32,000 bases of DNA from contig NZ_LN831024.1 in the NCBI RefSeq assembly GCF_001457615.1, positions 1,290,001-1,322,000 on the forward strand, given 5' to 3'. The translations under genes and the position numbers were made by a program. How positions within the stretch are numbered: position 1 is the stretch's first letter; every line of letters starts with the position of its first letter. Under the pieces are notes generated by a model that did not search any database, had not been told where the DNA came from, and saw only the letters and a program-made list of their open reading frames with translations. Positions 8,327-31,985 of the stretch are shown here, piece by piece. The DNA is from Pseudomonas aeruginosa. Its GTDB lineage: Bacteria; Pseudomonadota; Gammaproteobacteria; Pseudomonadales; Pseudomonadaceae.

Positions 8327-8337
8327 GACAGGCGGAA

Positions 8338-8395: not shown

Positions 8396-9082
8396 TCAGG
8401 GCCGCAGGCTGATCTTCAGGGAGGCCTGGGACAGGTCGATCTGTTGCAGGCTGACGCTGCCGAACGTCTGCTCGCGCGGCGCGCCGGCAATGCGAATATT
8501 GTCGAAGCGCACCTCGCCGATACTGCTCGGCAGGCGCAGGTTGACCGAGCCGTCGGGGTTGAGCGTGCTTTGCGTCTTGCCGGTTTCGTAGCGAACGTCG
8601 CTCATCGAGGTTTCCGCCTCCAGGCTGTCGAGCATCGGCATCACCAGCTTCGCCAGTTGCTTCACCGCGGCCAGTCCGTCGCCGCCCTCGGCCTTCAGGA
8701 ACAGGCCCTCGAGGCTTTCGTTGAGGCCCTGGGCGTTGACGTTGCTCATCTCGACGTCGGTCAGCGGACGCAGGTTCTTCGGCAGTTCCTGGCGGCTCAT
8801 GGCCGCTGGCGGCTGCATACGCTGGATGTCGGCGCTGGCCATCTGGAACGGACTGAGCAGGGCGGCGACCAGGGTCGCGGCCAGGCGCAGGTTGGTCTGC
8901 TTCTTCAGCGCCTTCTTCAGTTGCCGTTCGCTCAGCAGGCCCTGCTCGATCAGGGTTTCGCCCAGGCGCTTGTGGTTGCTCAACTGCGCCTGGATCGCGG
9001 CGTCCAGTTGGGCGGCGCTAATCAGCCCCTTGTTGATCAGGATCTGGCCCAGGCGGGAATGTTGTTGATTGGACATGGTCAT
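8396..9082 (-). CDS. Small membrane-anchored protein with an N-terminal MshEN-type (T2SSE_N-like) putative c-di-GMP-binding domain
   Basis: The N-terminus carries RLGQILINKGLISAAQLDAAIQAQ-LSNHK-RLGETLIEQGLLSERQLKKALKKQ. A hydrophobic segment follows (LRLAATLVAALLSPF), then about 140 aa of unassigned sequence. The start is uncertain: ATG at 9082 or 9076, while the track uses a TTG at 9118. Confidence 0.8.
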   Translation of the reverse strand: MTMSNQQHSRLGQILINKGLISAAQLDAAIQAQLSNHKRLGETLIEQGLLSERQLKKALKKQTNLRLAATLVAALLSPFQMASADIQRMQPPAAMSRQELPKNLRPLTDVEMSNVNAQGLNESLEGLFLKAEGGDGLAAVKQLAKLVMPMLDSLEAETSMSDVRYETGKTQSTLNPDGSVNLRLPSSIGEVRFDNIRIAGAPREQTFGSVSLQQIDLSQASLKISLRP

Positions 9083-9090
9083 GGCCTGAT

Positions 9091-9128
9091 GAAAAAAGAG
9101 GATGATGGCTAGATGCAATCATCCTCTT
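9091..9128 (-). terminator. Terminator-like hairpin downstream of the antiporter gene
   Basis: A perfect 11-bp inverted repeat AAGAGGATGAT / ATCATCCTCTT (9096-9106 / 9118-9128) with an 11-nt loop. On the minus strand it is followed by TTTTC. It lies 66 nt after the antiporter stop. Confidence 0.5.
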
Positions 9129-9193
9129 CGTGGGCTTCGTTTGTCACCCAACCTTGGATAGGGTGACGACGGTCTTCGTCGGTTCGTTGAAGT

Positions 9194-17815: not shown

Positions 17816-19015
17816 TCAGATGGCGCCTTCCCGGCGCAGGGCGGCGATGCCCTCGCTGTCGTAGCCCAGCTCGGCGAGCAGGGCATCGGTATGCTCGCCC
17901 AGTTCCGGGCCTACCCAATCCGCCGAGCCTGGCGTGGCGGACAGCTTGGGCACGATGCCAGGCATGCGGAATGGCTTGCCGTCCGGCAAGCGTGCCGAGA
18001 GGAACATCTCGCGGGCAAGGAATTGCGGATCGCGGAACATGTCTTCGGCGGAGTAGATTCGGCTGGCCGGGACTTCGGCTCGCGCCAGCACCGCCAGCAC
18101 TTCCTCCAGGGGCTGCGAGGCGACCCAGCGGTCGATAACCCCATAGAGTTCGTCGCGGCGCGCATCGCGCCCGTCGTTGCTGGCCAGTCGCGGGTCGCTG
18201 GCCAGGTCGTCGCGGCCGATGGCCTGCATGAAGCGGCGGAAGATCGCGTCGCCGTTGGCGCCGATCTGTACGTGGCGGCCATCGGCGCTGGTGTGGATGG
18301 AGGAGGGGGTGATGCCCGGCATGATGTTGCCGGTGCGCTCGCGGATGAAACCGAACACGTCGAATTCCGGAACCATGCTTTCCATCATGGCGAAGATCGC
18401 CTCGTAGAGGGCGACGTCGACCATCTGTCCCTCGCCGCCGTTGACCTCGCGGTGTCGCAGCGCCATCAGCGCGCCGATCACGCCCCACAGGGCGGCGATC
18501 GAGTCGCCGATGGAAATCCCGGTGCGAACCGGCGGGCGGTCCTCGAAGCCGGTAATGTAGCGCAGTCCGCCCATCGACTCGCCGACCGCGCCGAAGCCCG
18601 GCTGGTCCTTGTAGGGGCCGGTCTGGCCGAAGCCCGACAGGCGCACCATCACCAGGCGCGGGTTCAGCGCGTGGAGGACATCCCAGCCCAGGCCGAGCTT
18701 TTCCAGTACGCCGGGGCGGAAGTTCTCGATCAGGATGTCGGCATCGCCGAGCAGGCGTTTCAGGATCGCCTGGCCTTCGGCGTGCTTGAGATTGAGGGTC
18801 AGGGATTTCTTGTTGCGTGCCTGAACGAACCACCACAGCGAGGTGCCTTCGTAGAGCTTGCGCCACTTGCGCAGTGGATCGCCGCCGTCGGGCGACTCGA
18901 TCTTGATCACTTCGGCGCCGAACTCGGCGCAGATCCGCGAGGCGAAAGGGCCGGCGATCAGGGTGCCGAGCTCGACCACCTTCAGGCCGGCCAGCGGTTT
19001 GGGCGAATGTTCCAT
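17816..19015 (-). CDS. Family III CoA-transferase (CaiB/BaiF type)
   Basis: ...LAGLKVVELGTLIAGPFASRICAEFGAEVIKIE... is the typical N-terminus of the family, and the length is right. The start is either ATG 19015 (MEHSPKPL...) or ATG 19045. Neither has a strong SD. Confidence 0.9.
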   Translation of the reverse strand: MEHSPKPLAGLKVVELGTLIAGPFASRICAEFGAEVIKIESPDGGDPLRKWRKLYEGTSLWWFVQARNKKSLTLNLKHAEGQAILKRLLGDADILIENFRPGVLEKLGLGWDVLHALNPRLVMVRLSGFGQTGPYKDQPGFGAVGESMGGLRYITGFEDRPPVRTGISIGDSIAALWGVIGALMALRHREVNGGEGQMVDVALYEAIFAMMESMVPEFDVFGFIRERTGNIMPGITPSSIHTSADGRHVQIGANGDAIFRRFMQAIGRDDLASDPRLASNDGRDARRDELYGVIDRWVASQPLEEVLAVLARAEVPASRIYSAEDMFRDPQFLAREMFLSARLPDGKPFRMPGIVPKLSATPGSADWVGPELGEHTDALLAELGYDSEGIAALRREGAI

Positions 19016-19300
19016 GCGGTGTCCGTCAGGCTGCAGTGTGCGCATAGCCTAGAGCATTTGCCGGCGGTGCGGGCGGGTGCCGCGGTAGGGTGAGACGTTT
19101 CCCGTTTTTTCCCGATATGCCCGGCGGTCCTTCAATTCCTTTTGCATAGAGGGTTTAATGCGGGAGTCGATACAGGATGTAGCGCGCCAGACACCGAGCC
19201 AGGGAGGCCCCTCGTGCCATTTCTTTCTCTCTTTCCTCCCCGTGTTTCTTTTCCATGCTCCGGCCGGCCCGGCGTAGATATGCGCGTGCGTTGGTTTTTA

Positions 19301-19335
19301 TTACATGTGATCTGTTGAAATCTTACATGTGATCT
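19301..19335 (+). promoter_or_regulatory. Two perfect 13-bp direct repeats (operator-like) upstream of the cluster
   Basis: TTACATGTGATCT occurs at 19301-19313 and again at 19323-19335, with a 22-bp period. Each copy contains the palindromic core ACATGT. Confidence 0.5.
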
Positions 19336-19343
19336 CGTAGTGT
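19315..19343 (+). promoter_or_regulatory. Possible sigma70 promoter of the pspA-like/flotillin cluster
   Basis: TTGAAA (19315-19320), a 17-bp spacer, then TAGTGT (19338-19343). The predicted TSS would fall at about 19350, at the first ATG. Pattern match only, with a weak -10. Confidence 0.3.
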
Positions 19344-19349
19344 GAGTCC

Positions 19350-19970
19350 ATGCAACGGAAATCATCGGCCCATTATCAGCGTGTCTTTCGCCAGCGCCTG
19401 CGCGAGCAGGGCCTGGTGAAGAAGGAAGTCTGGATCTTGCCGGAGAACGCCGCGGCGCTCGCCGGCATCGAGCGGATGCTGCGTCGCCCGGCTGCCGGAG
19501 CGGCTCATTTGGAGAAGGAGGAAGACATGACGGAAGCCCGGGTATGGAACGCTCGCTCGCTGGCCGAGGCCCTGAGCGGCACCGAGCTGTTCAGCAGCGG
19601 CGAGGCCCAGATCGAGCTGATCGAGGGGGCGGAAGCGAGTCTCTACGTGATCATGCGCGAATACGGCGACCTGCCGGTGTTCGTCGCGCCCCAGGGCGAG
19701 CAGATCATCGTCGAGGCGCTGCTCTGGCCGGAAAGCGACGTTACCGACGCGACCGCCTTCAACGAAGAGGTCCTGCTCAGCCGGCAACTGTTCCCGCTGT
19801 CGAGCATCGGCCTGCTCAACCTGCCGGGCGAGGAGCGCTGCTACAGCATGTTCGGCGCGTTGAGCACGACTTCGTCGCTGGCCAGCGTGCTGCACGAAAT
19901 CGAAACCCTGGCCGGCAACGTGATCCGCGCCACGGAAGTCTACGCCGGCTACCTGAAAGCCCGGGCCTGA
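19350..19970 (+). CDS. DUF2170/YjfI-like protein with an about 59-aa basic N-terminal extension (alternative start 19527)
   Basis: Residues 60-206 (MTEARVWNARSLAEAL...YSMFGALS...LHEIETLAGNVI...) resemble the YjfI/DUF2170 proteins encoded next to yjfJ. A near-perfect SD (AAGGAGG, 6 nt) precedes the internal ATG at 19527. Even so, 19350-19526 stays open in-frame with G/C-rich third positions. Confidence 0.75.
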   Translation: MQRKSSAHYQRVFRQRLREQGLVKKEVWILPENAAALAGIERMLRRPAAGAAHLEKEEDMTEARVWNARSLAEALSGTELFSSGEAQIELIEGAEASLYVIMREYGDLPVFVAPQGEQIIVEALLWPESDVTDATAFNEEVLLSRQLFPLSSIGLLNLPGEERCYSMFGALSTTSSLASVLHEIETLAGNVIRATEVYAGYLKARA

Positions 19971-19984
19971 GGGAGGACACCATC

Positions 19985-20680
19985 ATGACGGTATGGAGCA
20001 AGCTGCTGAGCGCCCTGCGCGGCGGAGCCAACGAGGTTGGCGAGGCGATCGTCGACAGCCAGGCGCTGCGCATCCTCGACCAGGAGATCCGCGACGCCGA
20101 CGTCGAACTGCGCAAGTCGCGGGAAGCGCTGGCCTCGATCATGGCCCGCCACCGCCTGGCCCAGGAGCGCGTCGAGAAGGGCGCGGCCCAGGTCGCCGAG
20201 TACGAGCAATACGCGATCAAGGCACTGGAGGCCGGCAACGAGGAGCTGGCCCGGGAGGTCGCGGAGAAGATCGCGACCCTGGAGAACCAGCTCGAGGGCG
20301 AGCGTGCCCAGGTCGCGGAATTCGCCGCCAGCGTAGCCCAGTTGCGCAAGTCGGTGAGCCAGGCCGAGGGCAACATCCGCCAGCTCAAGCAACAGGTGGA
20401 TACGGTCAAGGCCACCGAGAGCGTGCAGAAGGCGCAGATGGCCGTTGCCCAGCGCTACGGCAACTCGAAGAGCAAGCTGCAGACCGCGGTGGACTCCCTG
20501 GAGCGGATCAAGCAGCGCCAGGCCGAACGCGCGGCGACCATGGATGCCGCGGCCGAACTGGCCAGCGCGGCGGCGCCGGACGATGCGCTGGACGCCAAGC
20601 TGCGCGCGGCTGGGATCAAGGCCTCGGGCAACAGCGTGGATGGCGTGCTGGCGCGCCTGAAGGAAAAGGGCAAGGCCTGA
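19985..20680 (+). CDS. PspA/IM30 family protein, YjfJ type
   Basis: 231 aa, all-helical. RILDQEIRDADVELRKSREAL..., VAEKIATLENQL, VDTVKATESVQKAQMAV and SLERIKQRQAERAATMDAAAEL match my recollection of E. coli YjfJ and the PspA heptad pattern. GGGAGGA lies 7 nt upstream of the ATG. The track ORF 19544-20680 shares this frame but starts too early. Confidence 0.92.
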   Translation: MTVWSKLLSALRGGANEVGEAIVDSQALRILDQEIRDADVELRKSREALASIMARHRLAQERVEKGAAQVAEYEQYAIKALEAGNEELAREVAEKIATLENQLEGERAQVAEFAASVAQLRKSVSQAEGNIRQLKQQVDTVKATESVQKAQMAVAQRYGNSKSKLQTAVDSLERIKQRQAERAATMDAAAELASAAAPDDALDAKLRAAGIKASGNSVDGVLARLKEKGKA

Positions 20681-20689
20681 TAGGCCCGC

Positions 20690-20719
20690 GGCCCGGCGAA
20701 GGCGTCCGGGCCCGTTTTT
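20690..20719 (+). terminator. Terminator/attenuator-like hairpin after the pspA-like gene
   Basis: GGCCCGG-CGAAGGCGT-CCGGGCC followed by CGTTTTTC, inside the 55-bp spacer before the next gene. Confidence 0.45.
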
Positions 20720-20735
20720 CAGGGATAGAGCGACA

Positions 20736-21377
20736 ATGGAAGGTTTCCTGCAGACGGCGCTGTCGTTCCCGACCGTGCTGTTCAGCTTTCTTCTGATCTT
20801 AGCGATCATCTACTGGGGCATCGTCGCCCTGGGCATGGTCGAGATCGATGTGCTCGATCTCGACGCCGAGTCGGTCGTCGATGGCGCCGGCCAGGCCGAA
20901 GGCCTCGCCGCGCTGCTGGCGAAGCTGAAACTCAACGGCGTACCGGTCACCCTGGTGCTGACCCTGCTGTCCTTCTTCGCCTGGTTCCTCTGCTACTTCG
21001 TCCAGCTGTGGCTGCTCAGCGCATTGCCGCTCGGCTGGCTGCGCTACCCGTTGGGCGCCGTGGTGGCGGTGGGCGCGCTGTTCCTGGCGGCGCCGCTGGC
21101 GGCCACGCTGTGCCGGCCGTTGCGGCCGCTGTTCCGCAAGCTGGAAAGCACCAGCAGCAAGTCGGTGCTGGGCCAGGTCGCGGTGGTGCGCAGCGGGCGG
21201 GTCACCCTGCAACATGGCGAGGCGTTGCTGGAAGACGGCGGCGCCGGGCTGATCCTGAAAGTTCGTGCGGAAGAAAACAAAGGCTTCAAGCGCGGCGATC
21301 GCGTCGTGCTGCTGGAGTACCTGGAGGCGGAGCACGCCTATCGGGTCGTTACCGAGGAAGAGTTCCGCGGTATCTGA
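20736..21377 (+). CDS. YqiJ/DUF1449-like inner membrane protein with a C-terminal NfeD-like OB-fold domain
   Basis: It has 3-4 N-terminal TM helices. The C-terminus is soluble and beta-rich: VLGQVAVVRSGRVTLQHGEALLEDGGAGLILKVRAEENKGFKRGDRVVLLEY. It lies immediately upstream of a flotillin gene, the classic NfeD-SPFH pairing. Confidence 0.8.
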   Translation: MEGFLQTALSFPTVLFSFLLILAIIYWGIVALGMVEIDVLDLDAESVVDGAGQAEGLAALLAKLKLNGVPVTLVLTLLSFFAWFLCYFVQLWLLSALPLGWLRYPLGAVVAVGALFLAAPLAATLCRPLRPLFRKLESTSSKSVLGQVAVVRSGRVTLQHGEALLEDGGAGLILKVRAEENKGFKRGDRVVLLEYLEAEHAYRVVTEEEFRGI

Positions 21378-21412
21378 CCCGGGCTCGGTGAGAATCAAGG
21401 AGAACTGCTGCT

Positions 21413-23479
21413 ATGGATATGACGTCGCTGATGCCCCTCCTGCTGGGAGTGGGCCTGGTTGTTCTGCTGGTCGTGGGCCTGCTGGCCCTGTTCAAGGCCT
21501 TCTACATCAAGGTCCCGCAAGGCACCGCGCTGATCGTCAACGACATGTCGTCGACGCCCAAGGTGCATTTCACCGGTGCGCTGGTCTATCCGGTGATCCA
21601 CCTGAAGGAGTTCATGCGCATCTCGCTGATCACCCTGGAGGTCGACCGGCGCGGCAAGGACGGCCTGATCTGCCGCGACAACATGCGCGCGGACATCACC
21701 GTTGCCTTCTACCTGCGGGTCAACGAGACCCAGGACGACGTGCTCAAGGTGGCCAAGGCCATCGGCGTCGACCGTGCTTCCGACCGTTCGGCGGTGAACG
21801 AGCTGTTCAATGCCAAGTTCTCCGAGGCGCTGAAGACCGTCGGCAAGCAGTTCGACTTCGTCCAGCTGTTCGAGAATCGCCAGGACTTCCGTGACCGCAT
21901 CATCGAGGTGATCGGCAACGACCTGAACGGCTACGTCCTGGAAGACGTCGCCATCGACTACCTGGAGCAGACCGCGAAGAACTCGCTGGACCCGAGCAAC
22001 ATCCTTGATGCCGAGGGCATCCGCAAGATCACCGAGCTGACCGCCACCCAGAACGTCATCACCAACGAACTGGAGCGCAACGAAGAGCTGGCGATCAAGA
22101 AGAAGAACGTCGAGACCCGCGAGGCGGCCCTGGCCCTGGAGCGCCAGCAGGCTGACGCCGAGGCCCGGCAGAAGCGCGAGATCGAGACCATCCGTGCCCG
22201 CGAGGAAGCGGAAACCGCGCGGGTCAAGGAAGAGGAGCGGCTGAAGGCCGAGCAGGCGCGGATCCAGGCGCAGCAGGAAATCGACGTGCGCACCGAGAAC
22301 CACCAGCGCGAGGTCGAGGTGGCGCAGCAGAACCGCCAGCGCGCGGTGGTCATCGAGGTGGAGAAGGTCACCCGCGCCAAGGACCTGGAGATCGTCGCCC
22401 GCGAGCGTGAGGTGGAGCTGCAGAAGATCGAGAAGGAAAAGGCGCTGGAAGAGCAGCGCAAGAACATTGCCAATGTGATTCGCGAGCGCGTCGCGGTGGA
22501 AAAGACCGTGGCCCAGGAGGAGGAGCGGATCAAGGAGGTGCGCGAGGTTTCCGAGGCCGAGCGGGTCAAGCAGGTGATACTGCTGCAGGCCCAGGCGGAA
22601 GCCGAGCAGGAGCTGGTACGCCAGGTCAAGCAGGCGGAAGCCGACGAGGCCCGCTCCAAGCACAAGGCGGTGGAAATCAACACCATGGCGCAGGCCGAGC
22701 TGGAGGCGGCGTCGAAGCAGGCCGAGGCGAAGAAGCGTCTGGCCGAGGGCATCGAGGCCGAGCGCGCAGCGCCGGGCCTGGCCGATGCGCGGGTGCTGGA
22801 AGTCACCGCCGCGGCGAAGGAAAAGGATGGCTTGGCAGCGGCGCGGGTACGTGCCGAACAACTGATCGCCGAAGCCAGGGGCGACGAAGAGCGCGGCCTG
22901 GCCGACGCCCGGGTGCTCGAGGCGCAGGCCGCGGCCAAGGAGAAGGACGGCCTGGCCGAAGCCAAGGTGCTGGCCGAGAAGCTCGGCGCCCAGGCGCGCG
23001 GCGAAGAGCAGCTCGGCGCGGCCAAGGCCAAGGCCACCAAGGACCAGGGCAGCGCGGAAGCGGAAGTACTGCTGCAGCGCCTGAATGCCGAGGCCGAGGG
23101 GCTTGGCAAGAAGTTCGGCGCCCTGGATGCCCTCAGCGACAGCGCTCGCCAGCACGAAGAGTTCCGCATGCAGCTGGAGAAGAGCTTCGAGGAGGCCATG
23201 GCGGCCATCGCCGCGAACAAGGACATCGCCAAGGACCAGGCCGAGGTGCTCGCCACCGCGCTGGGCAAGGCGAACATCGAGATCGTCGGCGGCGAGGGCG
23301 ACTTCTTCAACTCCTTCGCCAAGTCGCTGTCGGTGGGCAAGGCCATCGAAGGTGTGGTCGGCAAGAGCCCGGTGGTGCAGGACGTTCTCGCCCGCCTGCT
23401 CAACGGCCGTGGCGCAGCCGCTGCGGTGATGCCGGAACGCAAGAGCGGCCACGAGAACGAGCCGGCGGCGGAAGTCTGA
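21413..23479 (+). CDS. Flotillin-like SPFH/band-7 protein (YqiK-like), 688 aa
   Basis: N-terminal TM anchor (LMPLLLGVGLVVLLVVGLLALF) and an SPFH core (...ALIVNDMSS..VHFTGALVYPVIHLKEFMRISLITLEV...DNMRADITVAFYLRV). A long Glu/Ala/Lys/Arg-rich coiled-coil 'flotillin' region follows. AAGGAG lies upstream. Confidence 0.92.
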   Translation: MDMTSLMPLLLGVGLVVLLVVGLLALFKAFYIKVPQGTALIVNDMSSTPKVHFTGALVYPVIHLKEFMRISLITLEVDRRGKDGLICRDNMRADITVAFYLRVNETQDDVLKVAKAIGVDRASDRSAVNELFNAKFSEALKTVGKQFDFVQLFENRQDFRDRIIEVIGNDLNGYVLEDVAIDYLEQTAKNSLDPSNILDAEGIRKITELTATQNVITNELERNEELAIKKKNVETREAALALERQQADAEARQKREIETIRAREEAETARVKEEERLKAEQARIQAQQEIDVRTENHQREVEVAQQNRQRAVVIEVEKVTRAKDLEIVAREREVELQKIEKEKALEEQRKNIANVIRERVAVEKTVAQEEERIKEVREVSEAERVKQVILLQAQAEAEQELVRQVKQAEADEARSKHKAVEINTMAQAELEAASKQAEAKKRLAEGIEAERAAPGLADARVLEVTAAAKEKDGLAAARVRAEQLIAEARGDEERGLADARVLEAQAAAKEKDGLAEAKVLAEKLGAQARGEEQLGAAKAKATKDQGSAEAEVLLQRLNAEAEGLGKKFGALDALSDSARQHEEFRMQLEKSFEEAMAAIAANKDIAKDQAEVLATALGKANIEIVGGEGDFFNSFAKSLSVGKAIEGVVGKSPVVQDVLARLLNGRGAAAAVMPERKSGHENEPAAEV
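22775..23014 (+). repeat. In-frame 120-bp tandem duplication inside the flotillin coiled coil
   Basis: Copy 1 is 22775-22894 (GLADARVLEVTAAAKEKDGLAAARVRAEQLIAEARGDEER). Copy 2 is 22895-23014 (GLADARVLEAQAAAKEKDGLAEAKVLAEKLGAQARGEEQL). By manual alignment, 29 of 40 residues are identical. Confidence 0.85.
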
Positions 23480-23628
23480 GTCGACCCGCAGCCTCCTCCG
23501 CCAACTGCGGAGGCGTTCCGCCCGCGCCCTGAGCGGCGCAGCCCCTGGCGTGGCCTGTTGGCTGCGCCCGGGGCAGGCCGCTCGGGCCGGTTTCCATCGA
23601 TGACCGCCGTAGACCCAGGAAGACCAGG

Positions 23629-26600
23629 ATGTCGGACACTCAAGCCGCAACTCCCGCGCAGGACGTATTGGACAAGGCCGTTGCCGAGGGCGGCGCCTAC
23701 GAGGTGCTGCACAAGCGCCTGCTGGAGCAGGGCCAGCGCCTGCGGCAGACCGCCGAAAGGCTCAACGCCAGTCGCCTGGAGGAGTTCGGCGACAGCCAGA
23801 TGGATGTGATCGGCCGGGTCCGCATCCGTACCGAGAACAACTGCATCGCCCGCGATATCGTCCAGGTCGGCGATTGCCTGCTGTTCGGCTACAACGTGTT
23901 CATCGGCCTGCGCAAGGAAACCGGCGTGGCCGACGTGTTCTCCCTCTACCGCCTGGTGGAGGGCAGCGAAGGCTACGAGGCGGAGCCTGTGCCACTGGGG
24001 GACAGCTTTCTCGCCGCGCCGGGCTTCGTCAACGACTTCAACGAGCTTTACACCTACTACAAGAACACCCGCCTGCTGCAACTGGCGATCCGCGACGGCA
24101 AGCTGCTGGCCAGCTTCCAGATCGGCGAGCGGATCACCGACATCCGCGTGTTCCGCTGGTCGATCTCCAGCGACGGTAGCGAAGTCCGCTACATCGACAA
24201 CCGCGGCGAGCGCGACATCGCCTTGCCGGCACCGTTCGACTTCGAATGGCAGCGGGCTACCCGCGAGATGGTGGTGGAGGGCCGCTTCCCGCACCTGAAC
24301 ATCCTCGACACCCTGTTCGTCGAGACCATTGGCGGCGACCTGACCATCAAGGTCGAGAACAACACCGAGGTCGGCCTGGGCATCTATCGCGAAGAGGTGA
24401 TGGACAAGACCCAGTCGCTGGACGACGCGCAGGTTGAGTTCGCCCGCCTCGGCAGCCTGCTGCTGCTCAAGGTCCTGCCCTATCGCGAGGAGCAGTGGCG
24501 CTACCTGGTGTTCAACAGCCTGACCGGCAAGGTCGAGCGCATCGACGCCATCGGCCTGGCCTGCATCCAGTTGCCGGAGGACCACGGGATCATCTTCCCC
24601 GGCGGCTACTACCTGCAGAACGGCGAGTACCGCACCTTCGAGCAATCCATGGAAGGCATGCGCTTCAAGCGCTCGGTACGCTCGCCCAACGGCGAGGACG
24701 TGCAGTACGTTTTCTACCATCCCGAGCAGGGGCGGAACGTGCTGCTCACCTACAACCTGATCAACCGCCAGTTGCAGAATCCGCTGTTCGGCCACGGCTA
24801 CGCGCGCCTGGAGGACGGGCGCATGGTGATCTTCGCCGCCGAAGGCGAGGAACCGACCCGCATCCATCCGATGCAGGTCTGGCAGACGCCGTTCTGCACC
24901 GAGGAGTACGCGGCCCGCCAACCGGCGCGTAGCGGTTTTCTCGGGCGGATCGGCAATGCCGAGCTGGTGCGCGGCGTCTCCGACCTCTACGACTTGTGCC
25001 GGGAGATCGAGACCCCGGCGGTTTCGATCCAGCGCTACTCGCTGCTGTGCCAGAACACCCAGCGCCTGTTCGACGTCTACCACTGGCTCGGCAGCGACCA
25101 ACTGGACGGCTTGGCGCCGCTGTTGCGCGAAGTGGCGGCGACCGCCGAGCTGGTGCTCGACGAGTACGAGAAGGTCGAAAGTATCCGCCGCCAGTCGGCC
25201 CAGGCGATGGTCGACGCGGAGGAGCGGCACAAGGCGCTCCTCTCCGGCTTGCTGCCCGACGGCTGGGACCGGGTGCAGCAGTTCGTCGACGGGCTCAACG
25301 GCATCACCGCCCAGCGTGGGTTGCTGCTGACCATCCGCGAGTACCGCTACATCGACGTGGCGCGACTCGACGCCATGGAGGCCGAACTGCTCGCGGCCCA
25401 CGAGCGGGTGGCCGCCGCCACCGCGACCTTCCTCGCCAGCGAACAGGCCCTGCAGCCCTTGCTGGAGCGCCTGCAGAGCCTCGATGGCGAGGCGCAGAAA
25501 GCCGAGACCGTGGCCCAGCTCGGCGAGCCGCTGGCGGCCCTGGAGGCGATGGCCGGCGACCTCGACATGCTGTCCTCGCTGATGGCTTCGCTGCGCATCG
25601 ACGACGCGACCCAGCGGACCCGCATCATCGAGTCGATCTCGGAGATCTACGCCCGCCTGAACCAGGCCAAGGCGCGCGCCGAGCAGCGGCGCAAGGGACT
25701 CGGTTCGAGCGAGACCGTGGCCCAGTTCGGCGCCCAGTTCAAACTGTTCGGCCAGGGCATCACCAACGCCCTGGCCCAGGCCCAGGACCCCGAGCGCTGC
25801 GACGAGCAACTGTCGCGCCTGCTGGTGCAACTGGAGGAACTGGAAAGCCAGTTCGGCGACCATGAGCAGTTCCTCGGCGACATCCTGGCCAAGCGCGAGG
25901 AGCTGCTGGAAACCTTCGAAGCGCACAAGCAGACCCTGCTCGACGAGCGCCAGCGCAAGGCCCAGGGACTGCTCGACGCCGCCCGGCGAATTCTCGACAG
26001 CCTGCAACGACGCACCGCGCGCTTCACCCAGGCGGAGGAACTGAACGCGTTCTTCGCCGCCGACCCGCTGATCCTCAAGTTGCGCGAACTGGCCGAACGT
26101 CTTCGCGAATTGAAGGACAGCGTCAAGGCCGACGACGTCGAGGCGCGCCTGAAGGCCGCGCGCGACCAGGCGGTCCGCGCATTGCGCGACAAGAGCGAGC
26201 TGTTCGAGGAGGGCGGCGACGTCATCCGCCTGGGCCCGCGCCACCGCTTCAGCGTCAACACCCAGGAACTCGACCTGACCCTGATGCCGCGCGGCGACGC
26301 GCTGTACCTGCACCTGACCGGCACCGATTTCCTCGAACCGCTGCAGGACCCGCGGCTCGATGAGTTGCGCGAGTTCTGGCAGGTGAACCTGGAATCCGAA
26401 TCGGAGACGCTGTACCGCGCCGAATATCTCGCCGGCGAAGTGCTCGCCGCCGCCGACGCGGGCCGCGATGGCTTCAGCCTGGAGCGCTTGCAGGCGCTGC
26501 TGGCGCAGCCGGACGAGCTGGCGCGGGCGATCCGCGATTTCGCCGCACCGCGCTACAAGGAGGGCTACGAGAAAGGCATTCACGACCACGATGCGGCGGC

Positions 26601-28869
26601 GATCCTGGTTCGCCTGCTGCCGTTGCGCGAGAGCGCCGGACTGCTACGCTACGCACCCTCGGCGCGGGCCTTCGCCAGCCTGTTCTGGAGCCGCCGGCGC
26701 GAGGAGCGGGAAGTCGCCGGCTGGCCCGAGCGGGCACGCAGCAGCCGCAGCATCCAGCAGATGTTCGGTCGTGACGACGGCCTGCTCGCCCTTCGCGGCG
26801 AAGTGGCCGCGGCGATGCGTGCGCTGCTCGCCGGACAGCCCATCGCGCTGGACCCGCAGCATATCGACGAGGCGGCCGAGTACCTGGTCTGGGAATTGTC
26901 CGCCGAGCGTCCCGAATTCACCTTCAGCAAATATGCCCGGCAATTGCAGGAAGGACTCAAGCTGCGCCTGCAAGGCGCGCGTCTATGGGACGACTACCGG
27001 CAGACCCTGGAGCGTCTCGGCGAGCGGCCCGCCGCCCAGTGGGAACTGGCCGGCAACTGGCTGCGCGGACTATGTGGCGACGCCGAGTTCCAGCCGCTGG
27101 CGGCCTACCTGGACGAGGCGGTGGCGCTCTCGTTGCTGGACGAGGAGATGCCACGACGGATCACCGAGGTCGACCTGCGCTTCCAGGTCGACGGCCTGAT
27201 GGGCGAGCATCCGCGCATCGTCGAACGCGGCCTGGCGCTGGCGGTGGACGACTTCTTCGGCCGCCTGCGTCGCCATCGCCAGCAGTTCCTGCCGGGGCTG
27301 CGGCGCTACCAGGCGCTGCGCCAGGAGATCGTCGAACGCGAGCGCGAGGCATTGCGCCTGGCCGAGTTCAAGCCGCGACCGCTGTCCTCGTTCGTTCGCA
27401 ACAAGCTGATCAATGACGTCTACCTGGGTGTCATCGGCGACAACCTGGCCAAGCAGATGGGGACGGTGGGCGAGAACAAGCGCACCGACCTGATGGGCCT
27501 GCTGATGCTGATCTCCCCGCCAGGCTACGGCAAGACCACCCTGATGGAGTACGTGGCGCATCGCCTGGGGCTGATCTTCATGAAGATCAACGGTCCTGCC
27601 CTCGGCCACGAGGTGCGCTCGCTCGACCCCGGGCAGGCGCCGGACGCGACTTCGCGGCAGGAACTGGAGAAGCTCAACCTGGCGCTGGAGATGGGCAACA
27701 ACGTGATGCTCTATGTCGACGACATCCAGCACACCCATCCGGAGTTCCTGCAGAAGTTCATCTCCCTCTGCGACGGCACGCGCCGGGTGGAAGGGGTGTG
27801 GAAGGGCTGGACCAAGACCTACGACATGCGTGGGCGGAAGTTCTGCGTGGTGATGGCGGGCAACCCCTACACCGAGTCCGGCGAGGTCTTCCGCATTCCC
27901 GACATGCTCGCCAACCGCGCCGACATCTACAACCTCGGCGACACCCTCAGCGGCATGCAGGAGGCGTTCTCCCTCAGCTACATCGAGAACGCCCTGACCT
28001 CCAACCCGGTTCTCGCGCCGCTGGCCACCCGCGACATGGCCGACGTCTATCGCTTCGTCGCCAAGGCCGAGGGCAAGCCGTTCTCCAGCAACGAGCTGGC
28101 CCACGGCTACAGCGGTGCCGAGATCAACGAGATCAGCAGCACCCTGCAACGCCTCATGCAGGTGCGCGACGTGGTGCTCAAGGTCAACCAGCAGTACATC
28201 GCCAGCGCCGCCCAGGCCGACCAGTACCGCAGCGAGCCGCCGTTCAAGCTGCAGGGCAGCTACCGCAACATGAACAAGATGGCGGAGAAGATCTCCGCGG
28301 TGATGAACGATGCCGAGCTGCTGCAACTGATCGCCGACCACTACCAGGGCGAGTCGCAACTGCTGACCACCGGAGCCGAGGAGAACCTGCTGAAGCTCGC
28401 CGAACTGCGCGGCAACCAGAGCCCCGAGCAGGCCGAGCGCTGGGCGCAGATCAAGCGTGACTTCCTGCGCAACAAGTCCATGGGCGGCAGCGACGCCGAC
28501 GTCGGCGGACGGCTGGTTGCGCAGCTCAACGACCTTGTGGAAAGCGTCCGTGGCCTGGCTCGCGAACCCCAGCCGGTACAACCGGCGCCCTGGGACGAGT
28601 TGTTGGCTGGATTGCGCCAGCTCGGCCAGGGTGCGCCGGCGCTGAACGTCGAGGTGACGGCGCCTGCGCAGCCGGGCGTGCAGCAGGTGCTGGAGAGCCT
28701 TGCCGCCTGCCTGCAGGACAGTTTCCTGCCGCTGATCAAGGTGATGGACCGCAAGATCGACGTCGACCTGCGCACGCACAACCGCATCAACGAGATATCC
28801 AGCCGCCTCGACGAACTGGGCCGGTTGCTGGGCGGCGAGCAGAGGCCGCTGGAGAACGATCAACCCTGA
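23629..28869 (+). CDS. Giant (1746 aa) uncharacterised protein: beta-rich N-terminal region, about 800-aa helical region, single MoxR/AAA_5-like AAA+ ATPase module, helical C-terminus
   Basis: Uninterrupted 5.2-kb ORF with AGGAAG upstream. Walker A is SPPGYGKTT (27514-27540) and Walker B is VMLYVDDIQ (27703-27729). It continues ...FCVVMAGNPYTESGEVFRIPDMLANRADIY, the AAA_5/MoxR-style 'NP...G...lp.Al.dR' pattern. The rest matches no family I recognise. Confidence 0.9.
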   Translation: MSDTQAATPAQDVLDKAVAEGGAYEVLHKRLLEQGQRLRQTAERLNASRLEEFGDSQMDVIGRVRIRTENNCIARDIVQVGDCLLFGYNVFIGLRKETGVADVFSLYRLVEGSEGYEAEPVPLGDSFLAAPGFVNDFNELYTYYKNTRLLQLAIRDGKLLASFQIGERITDIRVFRWSISSDGSEVRYIDNRGERDIALPAPFDFEWQRATREMVVEGRFPHLNILDTLFVETIGGDLTIKVENNTEVGLGIYREEVMDKTQSLDDAQVEFARLGSLLLLKVLPYREEQWRYLVFNSLTGKVERIDAIGLACIQLPEDHGIIFPGGYYLQNGEYRTFEQSMEGMRFKRSVRSPNGEDVQYVFYHPEQGRNVLLTYNLINRQLQNPLFGHGYARLEDGRMVIFAAEGEEPTRIHPMQVWQTPFCTEEYAARQPARSGFLGRIGNAELVRGVSDLYDLCREIETPAVSIQRYSLLCQNTQRLFDVYHWLGSDQLDGLAPLLREVAATAELVLDEYEKVESIRRQSAQAMVDAEERHKALLSGLLPDGWDRVQQFVDGLNGITAQRGLLLTIREYRYIDVARLDAMEAELLAAHERVAAATATFLASEQALQPLLERLQSLDGEAQKAETVAQLGEPLAALEAMAGDLDMLSSLMASLRIDDATQRTRIIESISEIYARLNQAKARAEQRRKGLGSSETVAQFGAQFKLFGQGITNALAQAQDPERCDEQLSRLLVQLEELESQFGDHEQFLGDILAKREELLETFEAHKQTLLDERQRKAQGLLDAARRILDSLQRRTARFTQAEELNAFFAADPLILKLRELAERLRELKDSVKADDVEARLKAARDQAVRALRDKSELFEEGGDVIRLGPRHRFSVNTQELDLTLMPRGDALYLHLTGTDFLEPLQDPRLDELREFWQVNLESESETLYRAEYLAGEVLAAADAGRDGFSLERLQALLAQPDELARAIRDFAAPRYKEGYEKGIHDHDAAAILVRLLPLRESAGLLRYAPSARAFASLFWSRRREEREVAGWPERARSSRSIQQMFGRDDGLLALRGEVAAAMRALLAGQPIALDPQHIDEAAEYLVWELSAERPEFTFSKYARQLQEGLKLRLQGARLWDDYRQTLERLGERPAAQWELAGNWLRGLCGDAEFQPLAAYLDEAVALSLLDEEMPRRITEVDLRFQVDGLMGEHPRIVERGLALAVDDFFGRLRRHRQQFLPGLRRYQALRQEIVEREREALRLAEFKPRPLSSFVRNKLINDVYLGVIGDNLAKQMGTVGENKRTDLMGLLMLISPPGYGKTTLMEYVAHRLGLIFMKINGPALGHEVRSLDPGQAPDATSRQELEKLNLALEMGNNVMLYVDDIQHTHPEFLQKFISLCDGTRRVEGVWKGWTKTYDMRGRKFCVVMAGNPYTESGEVFRIPDMLANRADIYNLGDTLSGMQEAFSLSYIENALTSNPVLAPLATRDMADVYRFVAKAEGKPFSSNELAHGYSGAEINEISSTLQRLMQVRDVVLKVNQQYIASAAQADQYRSEPPFKLQGSYRNMNKMAEKISAVMNDAELLQLIADHYQGESQLLTTGAEENLLKLAELRGNQSPEQAERWAQIKRDFLRNKSMGGSDADVGGRLVAQLNDLVESVRGLAREPQPVQPAPWDELLAGLRQLGQGAPALNVEVTAPAQPGVQQVLESLAACLQDSFLPLIKVMDRKIDVDLRTHNRINEISSRLDELGRLLGGEQRPLENDQP

Positions 28870-28887
28870 GGACACGAGGAGCGGGAA

Positions 28888-29580
28888 ATGGACTTCGACG
28901 GATTGGACCGCCAGCTGCGCGACAGCCTGGCCGATCTGAAGCTGAGCAACGAGGAGCGGGACGAACTGCGCCAACTGGGCAGCGAGCTGGCACCCGACCA
29001 GGTGCGTTTCCTGCGCAACCGTGCCTTCGACCTGGTGCGTGAGCTGGTCCTCCTGGAGGAGCAGGGCGAACGGATAGCCGCCCTGAAGTGGCTGGAGCAG
29101 GTGGTGCGCACCCTGGAGGTTACCGCGGCGCCGCCGCGCAGCCGCGCCAGCGCCTATTTCAGTCCCGGCGAGGAGTGTCGGCGGAAGATCCGCGAACTGT
29201 GCCGGCAGGCCAGGCAGAGCCTGGACATCTGCGTGTTCACCATCTCCGACGACCAGCTCAGTGCGGAAATCCTGGCCTGCCATCGGCGCGGCGTTCCGGT
29301 GCGGATCATCAGCGACGATGACAAGCAGTTCGACGAAGGCAGCGACATCCATGCGCTGCGCGAGGCCGGCGTGCCGCTGCGAATCGACGACAGTCCCTTC
29401 CACATGCACCACAAGTTCGCCCTGGTGGATGGCGCCTGGCTGCTCAACGGCAGTTTCAACTGGACCCGCAGCGCCAGCGTCAACAACGAAGAGAACCTGC
29501 TGGTAACCGACGACGCCGTGCTGATCGGCGCCTATCGGCGCGAGTTCGAGGAACTCTGGGGCCGCTACGCCCCGCGCTGA
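28888..29580 (+). CDS. Single-HKD phospholipase D superfamily protein (Nuc/Zucchini-like) with an about 85-aa helical N-terminal extension
   Basis: HKD motif H-H-K-F-A-L-V-D followed by GAWLLNGSFNWTRSASVNNEEN (29407-29490). The start lies 18 bp after the giant ORF's stop, with GAGGAG upstream. Confidence 0.9.
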   Translation: MDFDGLDRQLRDSLADLKLSNEERDELRQLGSELAPDQVRFLRNRAFDLVRELVLLEEQGERIAALKWLEQVVRTLEVTAAPPRSRASAYFSPGEECRRKIRELCRQARQSLDICVFTISDDQLSAEILACHRRGVPVRIISDDDKQFDEGSDIHALREAGVPLRIDDSPFHMHHKFALVDGAWLLNGSFNWTRSASVNNEENLLVTDDAVLIGAYRREFEELWGRYAPR

Positions 29581-29686
29581 GCGGCAGCGACGCGAGAAAG
29601 GCAGGGCAGGCGGTCGGCCGGCGGACCGCACGCGGGCGGGTTTCAGGTTAGACTTGCGCCCTTTCGCTTCCCACGCCGGTATTCCC

Positions 29687-30226
29687 ATGGCCCTGCAATC
29701 CACGCCCTATAAAGCCGATATTTCCCTCACCGACCTGGACCGCGGGGTCTACGAGACGTTGCGCCTGACCGTGGCCCGGCACCCCTCCGAGACCGAGGAG
29801 CGCCTGGCCGTGCGCTTGCTGGCCTACGTGCTGTGGTACGGCGAGCAGATCGCCTTCGGGCGTGGCCTGTCGGACGTGGACGAACCGGCGCTCTGGGAAA
29901 AGAGCCTGGACGGCCGGGTCCTGCACTGGATCGAAGTCGGCCAGCCGGACGCCGAGCGCATCACCTGGTGCTCGCGTCGCTGCGAGCGCTTCAGCCTGCT
30001 CGCCTATGGCAACCTGCGGGTCTGGCAGACCAAGGTGCTGGACAGCGTGCGCAGCCTGAAGAACATCAACGTCGCGGCAGTGCCCCAGGAACCCCTGGAG
30101 AGCCTGTCCCGCGACCTGCCGCGTTCGATCAACTGGACCGTGATGATCAGCGAGGGCACCCTGTTCGTCACCGACGAGAACGGCCAGCACGAGTTGCAGC
30201 TGGAGTGGCTGCAGGGCGAGCGTTGA
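29687..30226 (+). CDS. yaeQ: YaeQ family protein (PD-(D/E)XK-like fold)
   Basis: MALQSTPYKADISLTDLDRGVYETLRLTVARHPSETEERLAVRLLAY... is collinear, by eye, with my recollection of E. coli YaeQ (MALKATIYKA...ARHPSETQERMM.RLLA). Length is 179 aa. The start is an internal ATG of the track ORF 29654-30226. Confidence 0.9.
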   Translation: MALQSTPYKADISLTDLDRGVYETLRLTVARHPSETEERLAVRLLAYVLWYGEQIAFGRGLSDVDEPALWEKSLDGRVLHWIEVGQPDAERITWCSRRCERFSLLAYGNLRVWQTKVLDSVRSLKNINVAAVPQEPLESLSRDLPRSINWTVMISEGTLFVTDENGQHELQLEWLQGER

Positions 30227-30269
30227 TCGCCGCCGCCGTTTCCTTCCGTCGAGCCGAACGAGTGACCTG

Positions 30270-31985
30270 ATGCGTATCGAACCCCGCCCCCTGCCCGAAA
30301 CCCTGCCCGATCTCGGCGACCTTCCGCCATTGCTGGCGCGCCTGTACGCGGCTCGTGGCGTGCGTTGCGCCGAGGAGCTGGACAAGGGCCTGGCGCGGCT
30401 GATTCCCTACCAGCGGCTGAAAGGCATCGAAGAGGGCGTGGCGCTGCTGGTGGACGCCCTGGAGGGCGGCCAGCGGATTCTCATCGTCGGCGACTTCGAC
30501 GCCGACGGCGCCACCGCCAGCAGCGTCGGCGTGCTGGCCCTGCGCATGCTCGGCGCGGCCTGGGTCGATTACCTGGTGCCGAACCGCTTCGAGTACGGCT
30601 ACGGCCTGACCCCGGAGATCGTCGGCGTGGCCCTGGAGAAGCGTCCCGACCTGCTGGTGACGGTGGACAACGGCATCTCCAGCGTGGACGGCGTCCAGGC
30701 GGCGAAAGCCGCGGGGCTCAAGGTGCTGGTCACCGACCACCACCTGCCTGGCCCGGAACTGCCGGCGGCGGATGCGATCATCAACCCCAACCAGCCGGGC
30801 TGCGAATTCCCCAGCAAGGCCATGGCCGGGGTCGGGGTGATCTTCTATGTGATGCTGGCGTTGCGGGCGCGCCTGCGCGAGCTGGACTGGTTCGCCCGGC
30901 GCGGGCTGAAGGAACCGAACCTCGCCGAGCTGCTCGACCTGGTGGCGCTGGGCAGCGTCGCCGATGTGGTGCCGCTCGATGCCAACAACCGCATCCTGGT
31001 CCACCAGGGCCTCGCGCGCATCCGCGCCGGCCGCGCCCGGCCGGGCTTGCGCGCGCTGCTGGAGGTGGCCGGGCGGCCTCCGGTACGGATCACCTCCACC
31101 GACCTGGGTTTCATCCTCGGTCCGCGCCTGAACGCGGCGGGTCGGCTCGACGACATGTCCCTCGGCATCGAATGCCTGCTCTGCGACGACGAAGCGCTGG
31201 CCCGCGACATGGCGGTGCAGCTCGACCAGTTGAACCAGGACCGCAAGGCCATCGAGCAGGGTATGCAGCGCGAGGCGCTGGCGCAGCTCAAGGAGCTGAG
31301 CCTGGAGCAACTGCCGTTCGGCTTGTGCCTGTTCGACGCCGACTGGCACCAGGGCGTGATCGGAATCCTCGCCTCGCGCCTGAAGGAGCGTTACCACCGG
31401 CCGACCATCGCCTTCGCCGATGCCGGCGACGGCAGCCTGAAAGGCTCGGCACGGTCGATTCCCGGCTTCCACATCCGCGACGCGCTGGACGCGGTAGCCG
31501 CCCGTCATCCCGGGCTGATCAGCAAGTTCGGCGGCCACGCGATGGCTGCCGGACTATCGTTGCCGCAGGAAAACTTCGGCGCTTTCTCCGCCGCCTTCGA
31601 TGCCGAAGTACGCCGCCAACTGGCCGAGGAGGACCTGGCCGGGCGCCTGCTCTCCGATGGCCAGTTGAGCATCCAGGAGTTCCACCTGGAGTTGGCGCGC
31701 GCGTTGCGCCAGGCCGGTCCCTGGGGCCAGCACTTTCCCGAGCCGATGTTCCACGGGGTGTTCCAGCTGGTGCAGCAGCGGATCGTCGGCGAGCGTCACC
31801 TGAAGCTGGTGCTGAAAAGCGAATGCGGCTCGCTGCAACTGGATGGCATTGCCTTCAACATCGACCGCGAGCAGTGGCCCAACCCTACCGTGCGCTGGGC
31901 CGAGCTGGCCTACAAGCTCGACGTCAACGAATTCCGCGGCCAGGAAAGCGTGCAACTGATGATCGTCCACATGGCTCCTCGCTGA
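30270..31985 (+). CDS. recJ: Single-stranded-DNA-specific 5'-3' exonuclease RecJ
   Basis: 571 aa. DHH-family motifs (ILIVGDFDADGATA, VTVDNGIS, LVTDHHLP), the DHHA1 motif (GGHAMAAG) and a C-terminal OB-like domain. Confidence 0.96.
   Translation: MRIEPRPLPETLPDLGDLPPLLARLYAARGVRCAEELDKGLARLIPYQRLKGIEEGVALLVDALEGGQRILIVGDFDADGATASSVGVLALRMLGAAWVDYLVPNRFEYGYGLTPEIVGVALEKRPDLLVTVDNGISSVDGVQAAKAAGLKVLVTDHHLPGPELPAADAIINPNQPGCEFPSKAMAGVGVIFYVMLALRARLRELDWFARRGLKEPNLAELLDLVALGSVADVVPLDANNRILVHQGLARIRAGRARPGLRALLEVAGRPPVRITSTDLGFILGPRLNAAGRLDDMSLGIECLLCDDEALARDMAVQLDQLNQDRKAIEQGMQREALAQLKELSLEQLPFGLCLFDADWHQGVIGILASRLKERYHRPTIAFADAGDGSLKGSARSIPGFHIRDALDAVAARHPGLISKFGGHAMAAGLSLPQENFGAFSAAFDAEVRRQLAEEDLAGRLLSDGQLSIQEFHLELARALRQAGPWGQHFPEPMFHGVFQLVQQRIVGERHLKLVLKSECGSLQLDGIAFNIDREQWPNPTVRWAELAYKLDVNEFRGQESVQLMIVHMAPR

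Follow-up and report, generated by a model that had tools for sequence, protein, structure and literature searches.

The bacABCDEF locus of Pseudomonas aeruginosa: a conserved flotillin, NfeD and giant ATPase core with a candidate autorepressor, BacA

This study concerns the bacABCDEF operon of Pseudomonas aeruginosa, which encodes a flotillin, a PspA-type protein and a giant ATPase and lies in a 32 kb stretch of DNA (contig NZ_LN831024.1, positions 1,290,001 to 1,322,000; below, the window, whose own numbering is used). The window is of high G+C content, about 0.60-0.71. According to the list of open reading frames (ORFs), seven genes lie on the + strand, separated by spacers of 14, 55, 35, 149, 18 and 106 bp in order, exactly as an earlier note, made from the sequence alone, had described these co-directional genes with their coordinates. 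The genes are as follows.

19350..19970, + strand: bacA (PA3732), long form of 206 amino acids (aa) with a basic N-terminal domain (residues 1 to about 50), a linker and a DUF2170/CesT-like domain (66-202)
19985..20680, + strand: bacB (PA3731), YjfJ-type PspA/IM30 protein of 231 aa
20736..21377, + strand: bacC (PA3730), short NfeD membrane protein of the YqiJ/YuaF type, 213 aa
21413..23479, + strand: bacD (PA3729, PaFlo3), YqiK-type flotillin of 688 aa with an N-terminal transmembrane (TM) segment, an SPFH domain and a long EA-rich coiled coil
23629..28869, + strand: bacE (PA3728), protein of 1746 aa with DUF3686, a helical/coiled-coil region with DUF7902, one AAA+ module and a helical C-terminal region
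28888..29580, + strand: bacF (PA3727), protein of 230 aa with a helical N-terminal part of about 85 aa and one Nuc-like HKD domain
29687..30226, + strand: yaeQ (PA3726), a neighbour outside the module

The start of bacB at 19985 is an internal ATG of a longer ORF in the mechanical list. The locus is the previously published bacABCDEF operon (PA3732-PA3727), because BacE is 100% identical to a P. aeruginosa cluster and residues 61-206 of BacA are identical to PDB 8Q8O. The gene order on one strand, namely BacA equivalog, PspA-like protein, NfeD-like protein, flotillin, giant ATPase and PLD protein, likewise matches bacABCDEF. All domain calls of the earlier note were borne out, DUF3686 and DUF7902 of BacE having been missed. 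The operon is flanked by core genes, encoding an MFS transporter, a CNNM protein, ffh, a Na/H exchanger, xerD, hom, thrC, a hydrolase and a divergent CoA-transferase; recJ lies downstream at 30270-31985, with yaeQ between it and bacF. The genomic setting is thus the core genome with uniform G+C content and no island.

Mace 2008 named PA3729-PA3732 a biofilm-associated cluster, found that a PA3731 mutant lost biofilm formation, swarming, rhamnolipids and virulence, and reported that osmotic shock raises PA3731 (PMC2587700); the biofilm phenotype mentioned in the earlier note was therefore correct. Subsequently, Wallart 2024 obtained products by reverse transcription PCR (RT-PCR) over all five junctions from bacA to bacF, defining one six-gene operon, found BacB-F raised 6-13x in a bacA::Tn mutant, and solved the BacA structure as a CesT-like dimer (PMC10948618). 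PA3728-PA3732 are co-induced by two lytic phages, being upregulated in all infected samples (PMC12041424), and are also co-induced in the proteome of a suppressor strain (PMC13637947). A 2026 paper characterised PaFlo3 (BacD) and its partner, the short NfeD protein BacC (PA14_16160) (PMC13086221). The proposal that the genes form one transcriptional and functional unit is hence already in print, through RT-PCR and proteomics (PMC10948618) and through co-induction (PMC12041424, PMC13637947). In a comparative genomics study, Ravi 2024 described the same neighbourhood, including the AAA+ ATPase and the HKD gene, found shorter flotillin-YqiJ(-AAA+) operons to be commoner, and took PspA-AAA+ links as a hint of Vps4-like ATP-dependent remodelling (PMC11237479). 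Thus both the Vps4 and the one-unit ideas are in print (PMC11237479, PMC10948618). What is new here is the long form of BacA together with its putative operators, predicted leaderless promoter and probable internal start.

To place the operon among its relatives, BacE homologues were scanned in one genome per species; at least 596 genomes carried one and the best 80 loci were kept. In 82 surveyed loci the seven window proteins were compared by BLASTP with six-frame ORFs, upstream counts referring to the 72 loci in which 5 kb or more precede bacE and downstream counts to the 77 loci with enough sequence after it. A plasmid megablast gave partial matches, yet supplied the Streptomyces and Deinococcus contexts. 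Upstream of bacE, BacD was encoded in all 72 loci, BacC in 71, BacB in 41 and BacA in 40; downstream, BacF was found in 18 loci (15 with BacB) and YaeQ in 7. The YjfI/PspA pair is accordingly present in about 57% of loci and the HKD gene in 23%, and bacE stands without adjacent PspA in 43%. Streptomyces, Deinococcus, Myxococcus, Corallococcus, a Clostridia metagenome-assembled genome and many Xanthomonadales and Enterobacterales have bacC, bacD and bacE only. Clustering of the flanking ORFs revealed no further conserved partner or variable effector, just lineage synteny and spurious high-GC ORFs. The invariant core across several phyla is therefore bacC-bacD-bacE, with the YjfI/PspA pair and the HKD gene as facultative add-ons, and the constant partner of BacE is flotillin, not PspA, in line with PMC11237479, whose account of the same architecture and widespread shorter operons our counts match independently. 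That study gives no numbers for the bac operon and mentions neither a BacA-type N-terminal domain nor an operator.

These counts reverse the order of events assumed in the earlier note, which saw two E. coli-type pairs joined and then extended by an ATPase: BacC (71/72) and BacD (72/72) are near-constant or constant, against 40-41/72 for the PspA pair and 18/77 for the HKD gene. It had also expected PspA and flotillin beside homologues of the ATPase; the flotillin partner is constant, and PspA is missing in roughly half. The note was right that E. coli keeps yjfIJ and yqiJK apart and has neither an ATPase nor an HKD gene at either locus, as seen in MG1655. In three loci (L054, L060 and L070) bacB-bacA is divergent from bacC-D-E and BacA is short and domain-less, which shows that the A-B pair can be transcribed apart from the core. 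The apparent A-B-D-C-E order in locus L012 may be an artefact of ORF sorting, as the refined bacC (6499-7266) precedes bacD (7365-9293).

The membrane-associated components were assigned by profile comparison. BacB matches PspA_IM30 (PF04012) at 3.5e-66; over its full length it shares 37% identity with E. coli YjfJ. By its sequence it is a YjfJ-type paralogue and not PspA proper, because it scores 23.5 bits against the TIGR02977 PspA equivalog, far under the cutoff of 243. The DUF2170 gene lies directly upstream with a 14-bp gap, as in the YjfI/YjfJ dyad. BacC and BacD had no Pfam or NCBIfam matches even at E<=10 and none in PDB sequence and profile searches. Using the YqiJ and YqiK sequences of E. 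coli MG1655, hhalign aligned the BacC profile with YqiJ (92% probability, E 5e-7) over the TM region and C-terminal beta domain, and the BacD profile with the flotillin YqiK over 405 columns (99.9% probability, E 1e-33). Both features of an SPFH-NfeD pair are hence present, with the NfeD-type BacC encoded directly upstream of the flotillin. Pfam-A has a blind spot for this flotillin/NfeD subfamily, despite the clear YqiJ/YqiK profile matches. The coiled-coil region of bacD holds a 33-bp tandem duplication at 22281-22347 (2 copies, 82% match), and further downstream the EA-rich part carries a peptide repeat of ~40 residues (GLADARVLE...AAAKEKDGLA...). The gap of 149 bp between bacD and bacE contains a perfect 7-bp stem with a 5-nt loop at 23495-23513 (CCTCCGC-CAACT-GCGGAGG), without a T-run and unflagged by the terminator scan, which could tune how much BacE is made relative to BacD or protect the mRNA upstream of it from decay.

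Pair by pair, BacA/BacB and BacC/BacD are homologous to E. coli yjfI-yjfJ and yqiJ-yqiK; unlike the P. aeruginosa genes, these stand at two separate loci with no ATPase and no HKD gene, YjfI is without the N-terminal domain, and YqiK is shorter than BacD by 135 aa. In Bacillus subtilis, PspA-YdjG/H/I and FloT-NfeD2 (YuaF) offer a similar combination, with an SPFH protein as the link between PspA and the membrane (PMC8581546) and a flotillin paired with a short NfeD protein, but these systems are without a dedicated ATPase or CesT-like protein and are regulated by LiaRS and sigma W instead.

The component that sets the core apart is the giant ATPase BacE, in which the following features were located.

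residues 38-485, + strand: DUF3686 (1.7e-205), beta-propeller repeats according to PMC11237479
residues 606-689, + strand: DUF7902, within the helical/coiled-coil region
residues ~1283-1440, + strand: single AAA+ module, with a weak AAA/AAA_5/AAA_22 match at 1283-1415
27514..27537 (residues 1296-1303), + strand: Walker A, SPPGYGKT, invariant alignment columns
27709..27732 (residues 1361-1368), + strand: Walker B, LYVDDIQH, with DD instead of DE, invariant

BacE is 47-55% identical across phyla (47% in a Streptomyces plasmid copy, 55% in a Deinococcus plasmid copy), and its AAA region at least 65%. The AAA+ module itself is recognised marginally, AAA_5 scoring 22.6 bits with a cutoff of 22, AAA 25.5 bits, and AAA_22 being marginal as well. 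Pfam gave no match to an MIT domain in BacE. Matches to PDB sequences (RuvB, E 0.006; p97) span the P-loop region only, and hhalign with E. coli RavA (3% probability) and FtsH aligned only the Walker A region; with PDB entries and FtsH alike, the aligned part comprises ~35-45 residues around Walker A. A MoxR-like motif, our first reading for BacE, is not claimed in view of these alignments and of the weak structural model. An AlphaFold model of residues 1201-1746, computed from a 25-sequence alignment, was poor (pLDDT 60, pTM 0.33); in it, a beta-hairpin separates helix 3 from the sensor-1 strand. Foldseek with this model against the PDB gave weak generic AAA+ matches with TM-scores <0.2, led by MCM, RuvB, CbbQ and NorQ; with this low-confidence model Vps4 was absent from the 50 best matches and the classical-AAA protein p97 first appeared at rank 37. 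The only well-understood partnership of SPFH and AAA+ proteins is that of HflK/C with FtsH, and it provides the best working analogy for BacD-BacE; there, an SPFH cage encloses the AAA+ protease FtsH (PMC13220708). FtsH, however, is a membrane-anchored classical AAA protease, whereas BacE has no protease domain and no membrane domain detected by Pfam (no TM prediction having been run), and it combines a beta-propeller with about 700 aa of helical repeats.

These results bear directly on the idea that BacE is an analogue of Vps4, disassembling or remodelling ESCRT-III-fold BacB polymers with the flotillin as a mere platform, which was hinted at in general terms in PMC11237479. In its favour, reviews state that bacterial PspA has no known Vps4-like ATPase (PMC7619361), which leaves this role vacant. 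In P. aeruginosa the bacB and bacE genes share a transcript and their regulation (PMC10948618, PMC12041424), 41/72 loci have bacB ahead of bacE, and the likeness to ESCRT-III/Vps4 is that a gene for an ESCRT-III-fold polymer stands beside an ATPase gene. Nevertheless, in 31/72 loci, including all of those outside Proteobacteria, bacE occurs with flotillin and NfeD and without an adjacent PspA, with PspA elsewhere in the genome remaining conceivable. BacE has no MIT domain, its similarity to classical AAA proteins is limited to Walker A so that membership of that clade is not demonstrable, and its predicted fold has a beta-hairpin before sensor 1 with weak best matches to MCM, RuvB, CbbQ and NorQ. 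The constancy of flotillin as the partner of BacE weakens the Vps4 analogy, which was central to the earlier note and has lost its main support; we consider it unlikely.

We next turn to the protein encoded first in the operon, BacA, and the region ahead of it. BacA matches DUF2170 at 7e-50 (Pfam) and the NCBIfam equivalog NF050185, 'biofilm formation regulator BacA', with 339 bits (cutoff 300); over residues 66-201 it shares 34% identity with E. coli YjfI. RefSeq and NCBIfam give the 206-aa form. In contrast, the original PAO1 annotation is short, the published protein is the 147-aa form from Met60, PDB 8Q8O comprises residues 61-206 only, and the residue numbers in the paper fit a tagged short construct. 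The published crystal form is consequently missing a conserved basic N-terminal domain of 59 residues. In 32/40 loci, from several orders, the BacA homologue aligns from residue 1 and keeps this domain, in which R14, R18, G21, K24, K25 and W28 are invariant and S6, R11, R16, P31 and E32 nearly so. AlphaFold predicted a helix at 6-19, an extended segment at 20-30 and a second helix at 31-45 (pLDDT 69). A full-library phmmer search with the domain returned 68 representative clusters among 1.84 billion, mostly BacA or fragments of it. The region ahead of bacA and its internal start contain the following elements.

19301..19310, + strand: candidate operator box O1, palindrome TTACATGTGA, abutting the -35 element on its upstream side
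19315..19320, + strand: -35-like hexamer TTGAAA, a sigma70-like match
19323..19332, + strand: candidate operator box O2, TTACATGTGA, within the 17-nt promoter spacer and 22 bp from O1
19338..19343, + strand: -10-like hexamer TAGTGT, ending 6 nt before the bacA ATG
19515..19529, + strand: internal Shine-Dalgarno (SD) sequence AAGGAGGA followed by the Met60 ATG, the SD lying 4 nt ahead of the ATG

TYACATGTRA has just two matches in the window, both upstream of bacA. Paired palindromes (TTACATGTRA or TCACATGTGA) were found upstream of long-form bacA in almost every locus, 21-24 bp apart (a spacing recorded in 21 loci). The strict pair was present in 27/33 long-form loci with variant pairs in the rest, and in 0/8 loci whose BacA is without the N-terminal domain. 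Within the 130 nt that precede long-form bacA, the ACATGT core has a density of 12.9 per kb, compared with 0.079 per kb elsewhere in the same loci. The boxes bracket a -35-like TTGAnn, and the second box fills the spacer of the sigma70-like promoter. The best sigma70-like -10 ends 6-7 nt before the bacA ATG in 20/26 loci, the mean sigma70-like score upstream of bacA is 8.2/12 against a background of 4.6/12, and some orthologous bacA loci have a perfect TTGACA-17-TATAAT (12/12). The layout implies a repressed promoter that would give a leaderless bacA mRNA, because the -10 ends 6 nt ahead of the ATG. That the N-terminal domain binds DNA we infer from the correlation between domain and operator and from the derepression reported for a bacA mutant.

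A second start within bacA is suggested by 22/33 loci in which the 14 codons leading up to the conserved DUF2170 Trp include an in-frame ATG accompanied by an SD-like motif, even where the linker peptide is not conserved; the same search in equal-sized windows of bacE gave 0.9%. Met60 is thus the probable start of a second, short BacA isoform of 147 aa. PA3732 has been listed among the targets of RsmA, with multiple sites in the vicinity of its SD (PMC4066749), and the GGA motifs at the internal SD of bacA agree with this reported binding. The N-terminal domain, the paired boxes and the internal SD with its ATG suggest that BacA is a two-isoform autorepressor, with a long DNA-binding repressor and a short form that would act as a chaperone only. 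BacA may also contact its neighbour, as an AlphaFold-predicted BacA-BacB complex has a probability of 0.981 (PMC13092808) and a strong BacA-BacB interaction was stated by its authors as unpublished results (PMC10948618).

The published description differs at this point, as it combines the same genes, order and sequence with the 147-aa BacA and sigma54; we propose the 206-aa protein, a sigma70-like leaderless promoter, two boxes and an internal start. Under sigma54/Psp-type control, an RpoN promoter would lie upstream of a 147-aa bacA and the 59 codons would be an untranslated leader. A -24/-12 site was proposed in both bac papers (PMC2587700, PMC10948618), the SD AAGGAGGA at Met60 is strong, and both the PAO1 annotation and the crystal construct are of the short BacA. 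On the other hand, no match to TGGCAC-N5-TTGCW was found with <=3 mismatches on the + strand upstream of bacA, as the earlier note had already remarked. A Sigma54_activat domain was found neither in the seven cluster proteins (E<=0.01) nor in the 20 larger flanking ORFs (E<=1e-5), so that no enhancer-binding protein was found among the larger ORFs scanned. PspB and PspC had zero matches in the same two sets at the same thresholds. The earlier claim that the window has no pspF, pspB or pspC therefore stands for the seven proteins and the 20 larger flanking ORFs; for pspB and pspC it is not established for the whole window, in which short ORFs outside the cluster were unscanned. Furthermore, the 59 codons are conserved as protein, in frame and with a conserved ATG, in 32 loci of several orders, and the 206-aa form of RefSeq and NCBIfam has the sigma70-like promoter and paired palindromes directly before its ATG. 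The boxes, the sigma70-like promoter and the long BacA together argue against the published sigma54 proposal, which we regard as improbable. In comparison with E. coli PspF-ABC, the PspA/IM30 domain is common to both, but the sigma54 promoter and PspF were not found by our scans and PspB/PspC are absent from the seven proteins.

Downstream of the core, BacF matches PLDc_2 (PF13091) at 6.7e-30 and has one complete HxKx4Dx6GSxN motif, HHKFALVDGAWLLNGSFN, at residues 174-191; reading the sequence showed neither a signal peptide nor a TM segment (no predictor having been run). These features place it in the Nuc-like single-domain branch of the HKD/PLD superfamily. Among named families it comes nearest to nucleases and defence PLDs (NucT, DrmC, MkoB/C, DpdK), with the NucT, DrmC and DpdK models all far under their cutoffs. 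Its substrate could be an anionic lipid headgroup or nucleic acid, between which the sequence does not discriminate. The seventh gene encodes YaeQ (5e-62), which the earlier note had kept as a possible member. It is not part of the bac module, because only 7/77 loci have yaeQ and all of these are close, Pseudomonas-like relatives. The bacF-yaeQ junction lies outside the published RT-PCR (PMC10948618). The spacer contains a GC-rich hairpin at 29610-29629 (GCGGTC...GACCGC) with a weak T-containing tail, which may end the bac transcript.

A giant ATPase beside a nuclease is a common defence layout, and the operon might accordingly serve anti-phage defence or abortive infection, with PspA and flotillin sensing envelope damage, BacE transducing the signal and BacF degrading nucleic acid as an HKD nuclease. 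The nearest named relatives of BacF are compatible with such a role, as is the phage induction of PA3728-PA3732 (PMC12041424), although induction by phage is expected anyway of a phage-shock-type stress response. In PADLOC, however, matching was confined to the PLD domain of BacF and generic (DrmC 3.6e-9, MkoB/C, DpdK); BacB and BacE gave weak matches (E >= 4e-5) to SMC-like proteins with coiled coils, LmuB and JetC among them, and BacA, BacC and BacD gave none. Moreover, the HKD gene is missing from 77% of loci, the locus sits amid the core genes ffh, xerD, hom, thrC and recJ with uniform G+C, and BacE and BacD are at least 46-55% identical across phyla, which is unusually conservative for defence genes. 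The known bac phenotypes are osmotic-shock induction, rhamnolipids, swarming and biofilm (PMC2587700). The defence module put forward in the earlier note consequently loses ground to the generic nature of the PLD matches and the core-genome setting, and we hold it to be quite improbable.

The BacE family carries the database names 'DNA repair ATPase' (NCBI) and 'ATPase involved in DNA repair' (Pfam DUF3686); no paper in the literature library searched mentions DUF3686, so the name has no traceable experimental basis. That BacE and a BacF nuclease act on DNA, with the membrane genes as unrelated neighbours, is very hard to credit: besides these names it can invoke the weak RuvB and MCM similarities and recJ just downstream, but the RuvB matches are confined to the P-loop region (E 0.006), bacE adjoins flotillin and NfeD in every locus examined and is co-transcribed with them (PMC10948618), and conserved flanking genes reflect lineage-specific synteny, not function.

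Taken together, we consider it probable, if far from certain, that the operon forms a flotillin-centred, Psp-like envelope-stress module of three layers that is switched by BacA, with yaeQ outside it. BacD and BacC would build an SPFH scaffold on the inner membrane. BacE, probably an AAA+ ring, would spend ATP to assemble, remodel or dismantle the flotillin scaffold or its cargo. In the species that have it, a BacB polymer might be recruited to a flotillin patch at the damaged membrane, as B. subtilis YdjI does for PspA, the SPFH protein being required there to place PspA on the membrane (PMC8581546). BacF, as a single-HKD hydrolase, could modify lipid or nucleic acid locally. These roles of BacE and BacF we infer. 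At the promoter, full-length BacA, as a dimer of dimers, would bind the two TTACATGTRA palindromes over the -35 and the spacer; transcription would start at or beside the bacA ATG to give a leaderless mRNA, and bound BacA would repress the operon. The internal SD and the ATG at Met60 would yield a short, DNA-blind BacA, corresponding to the crystallised form, and binding of BacB to the CesT-like domain and of RsmA at the internal SD may tune repression. BacB would thereby act as a co-regulator that is withdrawn to the damaged membrane, a partner switch with PspA-PspF-like logic. The same logic is proposed as in PspA-PspF and ExsC/ExsD/ExsA-type switches, with BacB titrating BacA via its CesT-like fold. 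Unlike those switches, BacA would combine a chaperone fold and a putative DNA-binding domain in one polypeptide, and it is proposed as a repressor at a sigma70 promoter, as opposed to regulators of a sigma54 activator.

A more ambitious form of this interpretation, which we put forward tentatively and regard as rather doubtful, is that BacE represents the first case of an ATPase dedicated to remodelling a flotillin (SPFH) scaffold in bacteria and that, in those Proteobacteria which also have BacA and BacB, it acts on a composite flotillin-PspA repair patch, the whole unit being under a two-isoform, self-repressing BacA switch. For a bacterial membrane-repair polymer it would then be a functional counterpart of Vps4, not a homologue. 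With regard to ESCRT-III/Vps4, the absence of an MIT domain, the undemonstrated classical AAA clade and the 43% of loci in which PspA is absent beside the ATPase are the differences that separate the two systems.

Several points count against the flotillin-centred, BacA-switched module. Deletion of paFlo3 (bacD) caused only about 20% loss of biofilm (PMC13086221), which is mild compared with the strongly affected bacA and bacB mutants; therefore the parts are not one simple machine for biofilm. The AAA+ clade of BacE cannot be placed, either from its sequence or from the predicted structure. With regard to BacA, the N-terminal domain gave zero Foldseek fold matches, its recurrent matches to the MazE-like PF11455 were all sub-threshold (E 0.007-0.19), and its fold is not established by the model with pLDDT 69. 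The P. aeruginosa bacA promoter scores just 8/12, and a stock promoter/terminator scan of 18800-30800 with a threshold of 9/12 detected neither a sigma70 site nor a convincing terminator. The authors of both bac papers proposed, by inspection, a sigma54 promoter (PMC2587700, PMC10948618), and the rise of BacB-F in the bacA::Tn mutant (PMC10948618) could be due to transposon read-through. Finally, the sample consists of the 80 best matches to a Pseudomonas-led alignment, so that the shares of the A/B pair and of BacF are biased to Proteobacteria and probably overestimate those in bacteria overall.

Bacteria are not known to possess an ATPase that controls their PspA/Vipp1 polymers or flotillin assemblies. 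With ~50% identity from Pseudomonas to Streptomyces and Deinococcus, and always encoded next to a flotillin gene, BacE is the most obvious candidate. The bac operon influences biofilm, rhamnolipids, swarming and lung virulence and is induced by phage infection and osmotic shock. The published structural and regulatory work on BacA may rest on an N-terminally truncated protein and on the wrong promoter class. If the proposed regulation is true, the 206-aa BacA and its two boxes would offer a cheap and direct route to the signal that switches the system on.

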